Below are positions 39,216 through 45,980 of a stretch of DNA of 51,955 nt, piece after piece (positions within the stretch are counted from its first letter, which is position 1; every line of letters starts with the position of its first letter). The stretch is from Bacteroidales bacterium. GTDB taxonomy: Bacteria > Bacteroidota > Bacteroidia > Bacteroidales > UBA932. Location of the stretch: assembly GCA_017548335.1 (NCBI GenBank), contig JAFZAF010000136.1, positions 1 through 51,955 of the forward strand, given 5' to 3'. The translations under genes were made by a program, and so were the position numbers. The notes beneath the pieces were generated by a model, which saw only the letters and a list, made by a program, of their open reading frames with translations, did not search any database and was not told the origin of the DNA.

Positions 39216-39234
39216 ACGTTTTTAAAAAGACTCA

Positions 39235-39242
39235 CAAAGATA
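39235..39242 (-). promoter_or_regulatory. candidate -7 box (TATCTTTG) for the initiating transferase gene
   Basis: Plus-strand CAAAGATA, 20 nt upstream of the ATG at 39215. The palindrome TATTCTT-GA-AAGAATA (39246-39261) lies in the predicted spacer. Confidence 0.45.
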
Positions 39243-39471
39243 TACTATTCTTGAAAGAATAACAACTTCTACCCCCTTCTACCCCGCAGTGCCGGAGCTG
39301 GGCTTCCCTTTAAAAATAAATATGTTCGCGCGCGATAAAAGCCAATTCTCGAAGTGCGGGAGAACACAATGCATTGATATACAAACAGATAATACCCCCC
39401 CCCTGAAATGGATAAACTGAGCCGTGGTGGAAAAAAGATAAAAATATACTTGCATATTCAGATATTCGTGG

Positions 39472-41843: not shown

Positions 41844-44168
41844 ATGAAAAAGATTATCGCATATATCTTCGCAGGAGCCGTCCTTATGCTTGCGGCGTCC
41901 TGCACTTGGGAGCCCGTCGACCCGAACGCCGAAGGCAATGAATTCGCCCTGCAGGTCTACTGCTCGGAACTTACGAAGGCGGGTACTACGCCGGGCGAGG
42001 GCAACGAGAACAAGGTTGTCTCCCTGGACTACTTCTTCTTTGCCAACGCTGAGTCCGGCGCCGCCGTGTTCCACTATCGGGACGCCGCCCCTTCCGCCAC
42101 TTCCGGAAAGTACCAGGGAATCTTCACGCCTGGTAACACCTATGGTGGAAACGAGTTCCCGACCCGCGAGGTCCTTTACGGCTCCAACGATTTCACGACG
42201 GTGTTCGTCGTCGCAAACCTGCGTTCGGTTCCGACGACTCTTCCTACATTGGAGGATCTCAAGGCCATCGCAATTGATCAGTCCTTTATGTCTGACGGTG
42301 CAGCCCTCGCTACCGACAGCGCCGATATGGAGTTCGTGATGACGGCCGAAGCCGAGGTCCGGGGCAATGTGTCCGGAGTCTTCACGACCCTCGGCCTCGA
42401 GCGCCTGGCGGCCAAGATGGTTTTCAACGTCAAGGTTGCCAAGGAGGTGTCCCTTTCGGGCACGCTGGACGGCGACGGAGGCACTTATACGGAGACGTGG
42501 ACGCCGATGCTGAACGGCAACAACGTCCGCGTTTATCTGCAGCAGGCCGTCACCAATACCGTGCTGGGTGTCGCCGACGGCGAGCACTACCCTGCTTCGA
42601 TAACCCAGACTGACTACAATCCAATCGTGCCCGCCAGTTGGAGTGACAACGAGACGACGGTAGGACCGTTCTATTCCTTCGCCACATCCTGGGACGACAA
42701 CCTCGCCCAGGCTCCTTTCGGAAAGATCATCGTTCCCTGGAAGGTCGTCCGCAAGGACGCCAACGGCAACGTGTTCTACTCCGCCCAGCGCGAGGTCTAT
42801 TACAAAGTAATGCTGCCTGACACTGAGATTCTGGCCAACAACTTCTACCAGTTCACCGTGGACATTACGGTGGTGGGTACCGAGACGGATCCCGAGGTGA
42901 CCATCGACGCCACCTATCAGGTGGCCGACTGGACCACCGGCGGCGCCGGCAAGGTGAACACCCAGATCAGCGACATCAAGTACCTGACCGTGGACCGCAA
43001 GCAGGAGAACGCCAACGGCATCATCGATGTCTATGTTCAGGGCGCGCAGGTGCAGTATTCCGCATCGGAAACGGCGGTGATTGACTGGGATGTTTCCAGC
43101 ATCTATTACCTGGATTATATTACCACTGGGTTGACGGACCATAAGCGTTATATCATCCAGAATGGTACGCTCAATACGAATAATGGAAAGAATATCACCA
43201 GTTTGGATGCAGCGAAGGCCTGGGTTGATCTGACTGAAGTCGAGAATCCTAATTCCGAGATTCCGGACACCTATATCACGTTGAACCACGCCTTGATCAA
43301 CGACCTGACCAACACCTATTTCGATGCCTCCCCGTATTTCTATGAAATAACCGTTAGGTTGTCCACGGGAGGTGCCGACCCCAAGACCGTCATCTTCAAG
43401 CAGTATCCGCAGAGCTACATCGAGGAGATGCCGAATACGGGGAACGATATGCATCAGGTCGGTTCTGGCTGGAGTGCTCAGAATGTTGATTTTGGCTATG
43501 TTTATGTGAATGGCGGTCACAATGGTTCGAATAACTATGGTGGTGTCCACGGGTTGACAGGCCAAAACACCAACCCTAATATGTATGTCATTACGACGTC
43601 GGTTTTGAGCGATTCTCAAAAGACGATAGGCGACCCCCGTATCGCAAAGGGGCAGTATGACTTGATTGATAATACCCAATTCAACAGCGCCCCGGTTGTA
43701 TCTGGTGGTTCCAATCGACGTTTGACATACTATAAGCGAGCCGAAACCAGTGACAGGAGCCGTTATATGATTGCTCCGGCGTTCCGAGTAGCGTCATCTT
43801 ATGGTGTTACCAATTCTCTTTCCTATGCCAATGGCAGCCGCCGTTGTGCTTCTTATCAGGAGGATGGTTATCCGGCCGGACGCTGGCGCCTGCCGACGGC
43901 TGCGGAAATCGAGTATTGTGTGACATTGTCAGCCAAGGGCAGGTTGCCTGTTTTGTTTGGCGATAGTAATAGCCAGACCGCATCAACTGATTATTGGAGT
44001 GCAAATGGTTATATTACGGTCGTAGGGAGCAGCGTGACTCCTCATATTGGAACTTTCACCGGGGATAATAGATATGTCCGTTGCGTGTACGACGAGTGGT
44101 ATTGGGGACCCGACCGTGTGACGGCCGCACAGCACGCCTTTATGTGGGGAGATGAACAGGATCAATAA
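41844..44168 (+). CDS. fimbrial/adhesin-like lipoprotein with a C-terminal DUF1566/Fib_succ_major-like domain
   Basis: Start trimmed to the ATG at 41844 (MKKIIAYIFAGAVLMLAASC). FimA-like N-terminal pattern (NENKVVSLDYFFFA). The C-terminus (CASYQEDGYPAGRWRLPTAAEIEY...DYWSANG...RYVRCVYD) matches the WRLPT / YWS / VRCV pattern. Confidence 0.6.
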   Translation: MKKIIAYIFAGAVLMLAASCTWEPVDPNAEGNEFALQVYCSELTKAGTTPGEGNENKVVSLDYFFFANAESGAAVFHYRDAAPSATSGKYQGIFTPGNTYGGNEFPTREVLYGSNDFTTVFVVANLRSVPTTLPTLEDLKAIAIDQSFMSDGAALATDSADMEFVMTAEAEVRGNVSGVFTTLGLERLAAKMVFNVKVAKEVSLSGTLDGDGGTYTETWTPMLNGNNVRVYLQQAVTNTVLGVADGEHYPASITQTDYNPIVPASWSDNETTVGPFYSFATSWDDNLAQAPFGKIIVPWKVVRKDANGNVFYSAQREVYYKVMLPDTEILANNFYQFTVDITVVGTETDPEVTIDATYQVADWTTGGAGKVNTQISDIKYLTVDRKQENANGIIDVYVQGAQVQYSASETAVIDWDVSSIYYLDYITTGLTDHKRYIIQNGTLNTNNGKNITSLDAAKAWVDLTEVENPNSEIPDTYITLNHALINDLTNTYFDASPYFYEITVRLSTGGADPKTVIFKQYPQSYIEEMPNTGNDMHQVGSGWSAQNVDFGYVYVNGGHNGSNNYGGVHGLTGQNTNPNMYVITTSVLSDSQKTIGDPRIAKGQYDLIDNTQFNSAPVVSGGSNRRLTYYKRAETSDRSRYMIAPAFRVASSYGVTNSLSYANGSRRCASYQEDGYPAGRWRLPTAAEIEYCVTLSAKGRLPVLFGDSNSQTASTDYWSANGYITVVGSSVTPHIGTFTGDNRYVRCVYDEWYWGPDRVTAAQHAFMWGDEQDQ

Positions 44169-44183
44169 TTATAGAGGACAATT

Positions 44184-45980
44184 ATGAAAAAGTATATCTA
44201 TATCTTAGCTTCCCTCCTTCTGGGTCTTTCCTCCTGCACGGACAGGATTCCCGTCCCCGCGCCTGAGGGAGAGGCCACGGTTACCATCGATATGACGGTG
44301 TCGCTTCCCCAGGTGGTCACGGCCACCAAGGCGACGAACCGGGCCAGCAATCCGCAGATCGAGAACATCTACGTCGCCGTCTTCGGCCGTCAGGGATATC
44401 TGAACGACTACGCCCTGGCCGTCCCCCTGGATGCGGACGGTAATATCACGAATAGCTACACCTCCGTGAACGGACAGGATTTCAAGCTCAGGGTCACCCT
44501 CCTGGCCACCACTTCCACCCGTTACATCCACATCATCGCCAACGGTCCTGATCAGTTGGACTACCAGACCCAGATCAATGACCTGATGTTGGGCGAGGCT
44601 TTGATGACCTCCGACAACAAGGGCGCCTATTGGCAGAATTTTACGCTGGCCGGTACCGCCAAACTGGATGGCGCCAACTGGGTCCCTTCCGACGACGCGG
44701 TTGCCAAATTCAGCAATGTCCGCCTCATCCGCAACTTCGCACGGATCAAGGTGGAGTCCGGTTCGTCTGATTTCGTTGTGGAAGGTTTCAAGGTCTATCG
44801 TACCTCAAAGTATGGTTCCTACGCTATGCCGATGGACGACGCCGGCTCTTCTTTCGTGGATGCGGCGGCTTATATCGCAAGCGACTATGACACGGATACT
44901 TATCCGACCCCGGTCGAATACATCCAGAAGGGGCTTGGCTATAAGGGTTATGTGCCCGATGCGGCTAAGGCGTTGATCGATACGGACGATCCCAAGGTCG
45001 GCGACGCGTTCACGACTGACTATCAGTTCGTGTACGAAAGCCCGAATACGGACTCCAACTATCCGTACATCATCATTGCCGGTAAATACAAGGGTGCCGC
45101 CACTTCCTATTACCGTATCGAGCTGGTGGACGACGAAGGTACGCACATCCCGATTTACCGTAACCTGGATTATACGGTTACCCTGAGCGCCATTGCCAAG
45201 AACGGCGTGAGCGATCCGAAGAATGCCGTGACGTCCAATGGTAACGTTTCCACCACGGCCCAGGACCTGTCCGAGATTTCCGATGGTATCTCCGGTCTCT
45301 TCGCCCTGTACACCGACCGCACCTATGTGATCGGCGACGACGACGACCCGAGCGTAACTTTCCAGTATCAGTATGTTCCCGACCTGTCTGCCGACAAGAC
45401 TTCCGCTAACTATTATAAGCAGGCGGAGATCCTGGAGGTTACCGGTGACGCCATTGACGGTGAACTCACGCAGGGTGCGCTGACCGATGGCTGGTATCCT
45501 GTCACCTTCAACCTCAAGAAATCCTCCGATGCGGTTACCGCGGGCAAAGACCTGGTCTCCACCTTCAAGGTGAGGGGAACTTCGAATACGGGCGCGAAAC
45601 TCTTCCGTATCATTACGGTCCGCGTAATCCGCACCCCGAATTACGTTGCCGCCTCTACCGGCCCCGACGGAATGAACTTCAACCTGGGTCTCCCGGCAGA
45701 CCTGCCTTCGTCGATGTTCCCGATCGAGTTCAACGTATACGACAGCAACCAGTGCCTGAACCCCAGCGGAACGGATATGCCGGTCACTGTTGACAGTGCC
45801 AACAAGCAGTTCTACTATGTCAAGACCGTCACGCTGAAGGACTACACGGACAATATGAATGCCGCCGGAACCGCTTCCGTGATTCAGCTTAAGTTCAAGA
45901 AGGTCAAGTCCGGTACGACTACCGTGACCGTCAAGAGCAACTACTTCCCGGATACTTCCGGTACGATTACCGTGCAGTAG
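44184..45980 (+). CDS. FimA-like (major fimbrial subunit-like) lipoprotein
   Basis: 598-aa ORF with a lipoprotein signal (LLGLSSC). The N-terminal pattern TATKATNRASNPQIENIYVAVFGRQGYL resembles P. gingivalis FimA-type N-domains. Motif-level call only. Confidence 0.55.
   Translation: MKKYIYILASLLLGLSSCTDRIPVPAPEGEATVTIDMTVSLPQVVTATKATNRASNPQIENIYVAVFGRQGYLNDYALAVPLDADGNITNSYTSVNGQDFKLRVTLLATTSTRYIHIIANGPDQLDYQTQINDLMLGEALMTSDNKGAYWQNFTLAGTAKLDGANWVPSDDAVAKFSNVRLIRNFARIKVESGSSDFVVEGFKVYRTSKYGSYAMPMDDAGSSFVDAAAYIASDYDTDTYPTPVEYIQKGLGYKGYVPDAAKALIDTDDPKVGDAFTTDYQFVYESPNTDSNYPYIIIAGKYKGAATSYYRIELVDDEGTHIPIYRNLDYTVTLSAIAKNGVSDPKNAVTSNGNVSTTAQDLSEISDGISGLFALYTDRTYVIGDDDDPSVTFQYQYVPDLSADKTSANYYKQAEILEVTGDAIDGELTQGALTDGWYPVTFNLKKSSDAVTAGKDLVSTFKVRGTSNTGAKLFRIITVRVIRTPNYVAASTGPDGMNFNLGLPADLPSSMFPIEFNVYDSNQCLNPSGTDMPVTVDSANKQFYYVKTVTLKDYTDNMNAAGTASVIQLKFKKVKSGTTTVTVKSNYFPDTSGTITVQ

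Follow-up and report, generated by a model that had tools for sequence, protein, structure and literature searches.

A UpxY-family antiterminator gene outside its presumed target, the capsule operon, and in front of fimbrial-like lipoprotein genes in an uncultured Bacteroidales bacterium

How does a capsule antiterminator reach its operon when its own gene lies outside it, on the other strand and at the head of a different set of surface-protein genes? The question is raised by a 51,955-nucleotide stretch from an uncultured Bacteroidales bacterium (lineage UBA932; assembly GCA_017548335.1, contig JAFZAF010000136.1, positions 1 to 51,955), here called the window, in which a gene for a UpxY-type NusG paralog is followed by fimbrial-like lipoprotein genes. 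The UpxY proteins of Bacteroides are said, from the work of Chatzidaki-Livanis in 2009 and 2010, to act in capsule antitermination. To our knowledge, UpxY regulation has been worked out in Bacteroides only, and there upxY invariably comes first after an ops leader of its own. The first-pass annotation of the window suggested that the paralog had been recruited to the pilus-like operon that it heads, and named action in trans on the opposite-strand capsule genes as the alternative. Comparison with related loci favours the latter: on balance, UpxY probably acts in trans on the capsule operon, whose leader contains the candidate recruitment site.

The UpxY gene and its unit comprise the following features, all on the plus strand (nt, nucleotides; aa, amino acids; ORF, open reading frame).

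39472-39479, plus strand: Bacteroidetes-type -7 promoter box TAAATTTG of the UpxY unit, found by motif scan, with TTG 19 nt upstream
39549-40082, plus strand: UpxY-family specialised NusG paralog, 177 aa (NCBIfam NF033644, Pfam NusG NGN)
40104-40286, plus strand: conserved 60-aa protein encoded by a small ORF (sORF) that leads the fimbrial-like cassette, recognised from alignments
40299-41831, plus strand: fimbrillin-like lipoprotein of 510 aa in the FimC position (lipobox LAGC; Pfam Mfa_like_1, E = 2e-9)
41832-44168, plus strand: FimD-family tip-adhesin-like lipoprotein, 778 aa (lipobox AASC; likely start ATG at 41844)
44184-45980, plus strand: FimE-like lipoprotein, 598 aa (lipobox LSSC; FimE_C domain in homologs)
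45996-46028, plus strand: intrinsic terminator ending the UpxY-fimbrial unit, a 13-bp GC-rich stem followed by a U-tract

Profile searches identify the 177-aa protein as a true member of the UpxY family of specialised NusG paralogs and not as a housekeeping NusG. The NCBIfam UpxY model NF033644 scores 117.5 bits against a cutoff of 100 and covers profile positions 1-162 of 164. It alone passes its cutoff, and no housekeeping NusG equivalog model is among the NCBIfam matches; a placement with housekeeping NusG, named in the first-pass annotation as a possible refutation, thus did not materialise. Models of RfaH and LoaP reach about 20 bits, far under their cutoffs (for RfaH, about 19 bits versus cutoffs of 124-144). 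Of the two domains initially assigned, NGN is confirmed (Pfam NusG/NGN, PF02357, residues 14-106, E = 1.1e-7), whereas KOW is seen only below threshold, as a KOW2_Spt5 match of 16.8 versus 28.9 bits; the UpxY model does span the C-terminus. The neighbours of the gene are capsule and lipoprotein genes, and not the secE-nusG-rplK context. Those of its 493 homologs that carry names are called "UpxY family transcription antiterminator" or "NusG antitermination factor". A phmmer search of the protein against all six-frame ORFs found no second NusG paralog in the 52-kb window. The 1466-aa ORF at 39279-43679 on the minus strand and similar long antisense ORFs are artefacts of high GC content.

The presumed target and the genes between it and UpxY are as follows.

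14508-36419, minus strand: Wzx/Wzy-type capsule operon of about 22 kb, identified with Pfam
36420-36527, minus strand: promoter and approximately 100-nt leader of the capsule operon, with the -7 box TAACTTTG at 36520-36527
36451-36459, minus strand: ops-like hairpin G-GCGAAGC-C, candidate UpxY recruitment site, 32 nt before the ATG of the first capsule gene
36575-36859, minus strand: PqqD-like (RiPP-recognition-type) gene between the capsule operon and the transferase, identified with Pfam
36898-37902, plus strand: NTP_transf_5 nucleotidyltransferase gene (Pfam), whose 3' end overlaps the convergent transferase gene by 4 nt
37899-39215, minus strand: initiating polyprenyl-phosphate sugar transferase, Bac_transf (Pfam, E = 1.3e-59)
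39235-39242, minus strand: -7 box TATCTTTG of the transferase gene, found by motif scan

The first gene of the capsule operon encodes a 229-aa outer-membrane protein (OMP229; start at 36419, minus strand) and has its own promoter and leader. It is followed by genes for an OmpA-like protein, the Wzx flippase, WbsX, acyltransferases, glycosyltransferases of families GT2, GT4 and GT8, Wza and Wzc. The capsule locus had been taken for a single unit of roughly 25 kb headed by the transferase. This has to be revised, since the NTP_transf_5 gene is convergent with the transferase gene and the operon starts at OMP229. The transferase gene is divergent from upxY, and the 333-bp region between them (39216-39548) is AT-rich as described, with 39% GC versus 58% for the window.

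UpxY proteins of B. fragilis load at opsX pause sites in the leaders of capsular polysaccharide operons (Saba et al. 2024, PMC11685472). The sites are about 40 bp long and consist of a region encoding a pause hairpin and, in class 1, a non-template hairpin 5'-YGCGNAGCR, which is related to the E. coli ops sequence GCGGTAGC; the first start codon in class 1 lies at about +41/42 from the pause site (PMC11685472). The capsule leader of the window shows this class-1 layout. The 155-nt spacer between the PqqD-like gene and OMP229 holds the TAACTTTG box and the leader, in which hairpin 1 is followed by a covarying, pause-hairpin-like stem directly abutting the ops-like hairpin, and the latter lies tens of nucleotides before the start codon. 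As a positive control, the B. salyersiae locus L024, which carries UpxY, Wza and Wzc, has TGCGAAGCG, that is T-GCGAAGC-G, approximately 70 nt upstream of UpxY.

The same leader was found in related contigs (numbered L001 and on; the close relatives are uncultured rumen and gut Bacteroidales). In 10 distinct related loci (window/L032, L001, L005, L008, L009, L011, L017, L038/39, L043) a hairpin S-GCGNAGC-S precedes OMP229 by 28-51 nt. The base in its loop varies between A, T and G, and a compensatory change from GCG..AGC to ACG..AGT is seen. The leader is conserved across loci in which OMP229 itself is only 32-70% identical. RNAalifold predicts a 5-bp stem with covariation, whose end is 1-2 nt from the start of the ops-like hairpin. 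In the nine-sequence alignment from which the structure itself was derived, 96.3% of cells are paired and covariation is 0.469 versus 0.261 in shuffled alignments (none of 500 reaches the observed value); in controls with slid partners it is at most 0.12. No Rfam family matches the leaders, and the only Rfam matches in the window are three transfer RNAs elsewhere. A metagenome scan with a 16-base leader pattern was not informative: almost all of its 120 matches are chance ones, and L074 is the only true homologous locus among them.

No such element was observed in the UpxY unit. The UpxY leader is about 65 nt long and folds no better than shuffled sequence (z = 0.13), and the GCGNAGC motif is absent from it and from the non-coding parts of the unit. 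Nor does any clade locus have an ops-like motif within 200 nt upstream of UpxY, the transferase gene or the sORF. The TAAATTTG box itself is also kept in L032, a near-identical contig with a UpxY 95% identical to that of the window. An invertible promoter or shufflon was considered and ruled out, as neither the surroundings of the UpxY promoter nor the unit as a whole contains meaningful inverted repeats; an apparent inversion between L035 and L036 is a gene-calling artefact, L036 being 100% identical to L035 9753-15152. The motif ATAGCAGAAAAACGGCACA, common to UpxY leaders, was rejected as a recruitment site: it has a single copy in the window and is loosely shared among close relatives only. 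A near-perfect palindrome ATCTCTACCGTAGAGAT lies just 5' of the UpxY promoter in three relatives with free-standing UpxY (L037 at about 230-250, L015 at about 2780-2800, L001 at about 9870-9890). The window does not have this palindrome, a possible operator.

Downstream of UpxY the spacing is tight, as noted in the first-pass annotation (12-21 nt): along UpxY, the sORF, the 510-, 778- and 598-aa genes and the terminator the gaps are 21, 12, 12 and 15 nt. The terminator proposed at the end of the unit is indeed strong (-28.9 kcal/mol, z = -5.0 by folding; a simple consensus scan had missed it). Between UpxY and the lipoprotein genes the motif scan found no -7 box and the consensus scan no terminator. 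Thus UpxY and the fimbrillin-like lipoprotein genes are very probably co-transcribed from the TAAATTTG promoter to the terminator at 45996-46028, and the surface lipoproteins would therefore be expressed together with the capsule antiterminator.

The presence of the 60-aa ORF and of three lipoproteins, each with a lipobox, agrees with the earlier description, whereas the FimA-like label does not hold: from the domain matches the three appear to be accessory proteins of the FimC/D/E type, and not FimA-type stalk pilins. Homologs of the 510-aa lipoprotein come after an sORF in at least 15 loci. The 778-aa protein matches the NCBIfam model NF052322, FimD_tip_adhes, over its whole length (296.9 bits, cutoff 170, positions 1-664 of 664). 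The 598-aa protein has no match of its own in the copy of Pfam searched; FimE_C (PF27397) is present in its L032 and L041 homologs. In Pfam searches none of the three matched P_gingi_FimA or Mfa2 at E <= 0.01, and sequence searches of the PDB with the three lipoproteins returned nothing.

Given this unit, one possibility is that UpxY loads on the polymerase transcribing its own genes and serves as a processive antiterminator for the 6.4-kb fimbrial-accessory operon, as its sole or an additional role. The common strand, the 12-21 nt gaps and an interval from UpxY to the lipoprotein genes that has neither -7 box nor terminator fit it. So does the gene order: UpxY, sORF, FimC-like gene, then often FimD- and FimE-like genes, recurs at 52-95% UpxY identity in some 20 loci (L001 twice, L003-L012, L015, L023, L032-34, L037-L041, L043). 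Moreover, pilus-associated NusG paralogs are known, namely RfaH acting on the F tra operon and ActX, which is encoded within pilus operons (PMC7593976, PMC7819879). However, the UpxY leader lacks an ops-like or pause hairpin, and the operon is short compared with typical targets of NusG paralogs. Furthermore, UpxY and the cassette occur apart. A locus of 18 kb, L042, contains the sORF followed by genes for proteins of 515, 814 (P_gingi_FimA), 609 and 387 aa (P_gingi_FimA). Genes for UpxY, the transferase and the capsule are missing from the locus, and this stand-alone cassette has its own TACCTTTG promoter. In L035 there are two sORF-lipoprotein units that diverge from each other, and one of the two converges with UpxY. 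The gap between UpxY and the sORF is approximately 150-480 nt in L041, L006 and L040, long enough for a promoter. A second sORF in the window heads a lipoprotein gene without any UpxY. Conversely, UpxY has no cassette in L017, L013 and L002. The synteny survey suggested in the first-pass annotation thus gives a divided answer: lipoprotein genes follow UpxY in about 20 of 24 clade loci, and not always. Nothing indicates that the cassette itself depends on UpxY, and we regard antitermination of its own unit as possible but doubtful. As no recognisable recruitment element is found there and the cassette occurs without UpxY, the proposal that UpxY was recruited to the pilus-like operon is not supported.

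Action in trans on the capsule operon agrees better with the arrangement of genes in relatives. In most cases the transferase gene directly precedes UpxY in the same orientation, with gaps of 0-20 nt or overlaps; the window, L032 and L015 have the two genes divergent, and L008 and L009 have the transferase gene downstream and convergent. With respect to the OMP229-led operon, the UpxY unit is divergent in window/L032, L008, L009, L010, L011 and L043, and co-oriented and upstream in L001, L005, L038/39, L017 and GCA_016648615.1. In L017 the order is transferase, UpxY, promoter, leader with the ops-like element and OMP229, with no cassette. Whatever the arrangement, the capsule operon retains a promoter and leader of its own, with upxY either upstream of that promoter or on the opposite strand and in no case downstream of the ops element. 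At L013 8632-10504 the transferase-UpxY pair lies among non-capsule genes, for a permease-like membrane protein and a phosphatase-like protein; this setting is consistent with UpxY acting at a distance in the clade. In L038 (6259-8649) and L039 (5652-8069) genes for a histidine kinase and a response regulator are located directly upstream of transferase, UpxY, sORF and lipoprotein genes, all on one strand and 3-50 nt apart, which points to a two-component system controlling the UpxY unit in that lineage.

The UpxY of the window may, on the other hand, have an unlinked target or be redundant, the capsule leader being served by another factor, either a UpxY paralog encoded elsewhere or housekeeping NusG/NusA. 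Related metagenome-assembled genomes (MAGs) can indeed have multiple UpxY genes (two in L001; L007, L015 and L023 belong to a single MAG), and Bacteroides genomes have 8 or more cognate Y-ops pairs. However, UpxY is within 0.1-8 kb of the OMP229-led operon in every locus showing both, at 48-95% UpxY identity and despite the rearrangements, and the window has a single UpxY. A different factor at the capsule leader therefore seems quite unlikely to us.

The remaining question about the unit is whether the cassette has a start of its own. If it were transcribed from just upstream of the sORF, UpxY would be effectively monocistronic, like rfaH. The sORF is immediately preceded by a near-consensus box TAAATTTA (40096-40103). 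The long UpxY-sORF gaps in L041 (216 nt, AT-rich), L006 and L040 and the TACCTTTG promoter of the L042 cassette point in the same direction. However, 40083-40300 contains no exact TAnnTTTG box, the gap in the window is only 21 nt, and there is no terminator after UpxY. A separate start for the cassette in the window is thus very unlikely.

We suggest the following mechanism. In this lineage upxY sits outside the capsule operon, typically right after the initiating transferase gene, and UpxY would be made from its own unit. It would then load in trans on RNA polymerase paused at the capsule leader, with the ops-like hairpin before OMP229 as the recruitment site, and make transcription of the approximately 22-kb capsule operon resistant to termination. 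The sORF and the FimC/D/E-like lipoprotein genes would be a separate cassette inserted downstream of upxY; in the window its probable co-transcription with upxY would couple lipoprotein expression to the capsule antiterminator. We prefer this scheme, which is the alternative named in the first-pass annotation, because the only ops-like element sits in the capsule leader (in 10 loci), the UpxY leader is unstructured and the cassette is independent of UpxY.

Several points weigh against the scheme. The UpxY-sORF-lipoprotein order is kept in about 20 of 24 clade loci; L001 and L015 carry two UpxY genes each, and in L001 each heads a cassette, whereas in L015 the second is cut by the contig end. 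A conserved order and the paired UpxY and cassettes of L001 would equally be expected if UpxY and the cassette were functionally linked. The flanking pair of the window hairpin is G..C, versus the published Y..R. The leader sequences are homologous, and their structure and pair counts come from one alignment. Several opsX sites of Bacteroides, those of class 2, have no obvious non-template hairpin (PMC11685472), so the lack of the motif upstream of UpxY is no proof that this region is free of recruitment sites. The capsule leader could also be served by UpxY genes at other places in the genome. The organism is uncultured, and the scheme is built on sequence comparison.

A combination of roles can also be imagined. 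UpxY would be recruited in trans at the capsule leader and, in addition, ride the polymerase through its own unit, so that a type V pilus-like tip-adhesin set and the capsule are licensed together, with the 60-aa protein as a new partner or modulator and a functional stand-in for the missing UpxZ. We consider this unlikely. As a UpxZ analogue proper, the sORF was ruled out, since it heads cassettes without UpxY (L042; the second sORF at 46177-46317).

The ORF next to UpxY, where a gene for the UpxZ inhibitor might be sought, is the 60-aa sORF, and from its distribution the sORF is best placed with the lipoprotein genes, not with UpxY. Its family comprises proteins of 55-76 aa and has at least 327 cluster representatives, none of them annotated or matched by Pfam. 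Conserved motifs occur over the whole length: a Lys-rich N-terminus, [FY]xxPxVL, ILxGS, GQEV and a C-terminal FNHxWE. The 60-aa protein has no match in Pfam or NCBIfam. AlphaFold2 gave no secondary structure and no confident fold (predicted local distance difference test score, pLDDT, 65; predicted template modelling score, pTM, 0.16). The L032 copy differs from that of the window by only 3 synonymous codons. A second member follows the terminator.

46177-46317, plus strand: second, shorter sORF-family member, 46 aa, conserved in L032, with its own -7 box TATATTTG (region 46135-46317)

This second sORF heads a gene at 46364-49942 on the plus strand for a 1192-aa lipoprotein with Big_2 and a C-terminal tyrosine-phosphatase-family domain. 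A further lipoprotein ORF, 49958-51955 on the plus strand, contains a long internal duplication and runs off the window.

Some observations concern other parts of the window. The divergent pair of PqqD-like and NTP_transf_5 genes adjoins the capsule leader also in L001, L005, L032, L038/39 and L074. Within the capsule operon, a 291-aa acyltransferase ORF (20020-20895, minus strand) matches only the first half of Acyl_transf_3 (positions 3-161 of 326) and may be truncated or frameshifted. The three transfer RNA genes, at 8344-8428 (minus strand), 10543-10617 (minus strand) and 10697-10781 (plus strand), are in the housekeeping part of the window, next to genes for isoleucyl-tRNA synthetase (IleRS), a TsaB-like protein, an isocitrate/isopropylmalate dehydrogenase and a PspC-domain protein. 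This setting places the locus on the chromosome, with no obvious mobile element carrying it.

UpxY, an ops-like leader, FimC/D/E-like lipoproteins and a Wzx/Wzy capsule are each of a kind already known, and it is their arrangement that is new. In agreement with the first-pass annotation, our literature search, whose coverage was incomplete, found no paper tying UpxY or another NusG paralog to type V fimbrial operons, and none describing UpxY uncoupled from an ops leader. If the proposed mechanism is true, the UpxY family can work in an RfaH-like trans mode, with upxY physically uncoupled from the capsule operon that bears the ops element. The gene would do so here without UpxZ and invertible promoters and in co-expression with fimbrial tip-adhesin-like lipoproteins, which suggests how capsule and adhesins, as competing surface structures, could be coordinated by simple means. 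The data also define an unannotated family of 55-65-aa proteins leading type V pilus-accessory cassettes, and the capsule-leader element could help to annotate the starts of capsule operons in MAGs of rumen Bacteroidales.

The cassette resembles fimCDE of Porphyromonas gingivalis, the accessory and tip genes of a type V pilus. The likeness consists in three consecutive lipoprotein genes for proteins of about 500, 780 and 600 aa with Mfa_like_1, the FimD model and, via homologs, FimE_C. Unlike fimCDE, it is preceded by a 60-aa ORF and UpxY and lies beside a capsule locus, and the unit in the window has no recognisable gene for a FimA stalk or FimB anchor. Compared with type V (Fim/Mfa) pili as a whole, lipoprotein subunits of the fimbrillin superfamily are present in the window and stalk and anchor genes are not, whereas L042 has two P_gingi_FimA proteins.

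The regulatory part resembles the UpxY-opsX system of Bacteroides fragilis and B. thetaiotaomicron in the protein family, the link to a Wzx/Wzy capsule, and a leader hairpin followed by a GCGNAGC hairpin tens of nucleotides before the start codon. In Bacteroides, cross-talk between capsule loci is handled by UpxZ and invertible promoters. The window has neither; its ops-like hairpin has G..C in place of Y..R flanks, its ops leader precedes OMP229 and not upxY, and upxY belongs to a separate divergent unit, together with a probably co-transcribed cassette. RfaH of E. coli, which controls surface structures including capsule and the F conjugative pilus, offers the other comparison. The protein of the window is from another family, and its gene is probably not monocistronic and is tightly linked to its presumed target. 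Nevertheless, in the interpretation favoured here the two systems would share their principle: a specialised NusG paralog, encoded away from its target, acts in trans at a short GCG..AGC leader hairpin.

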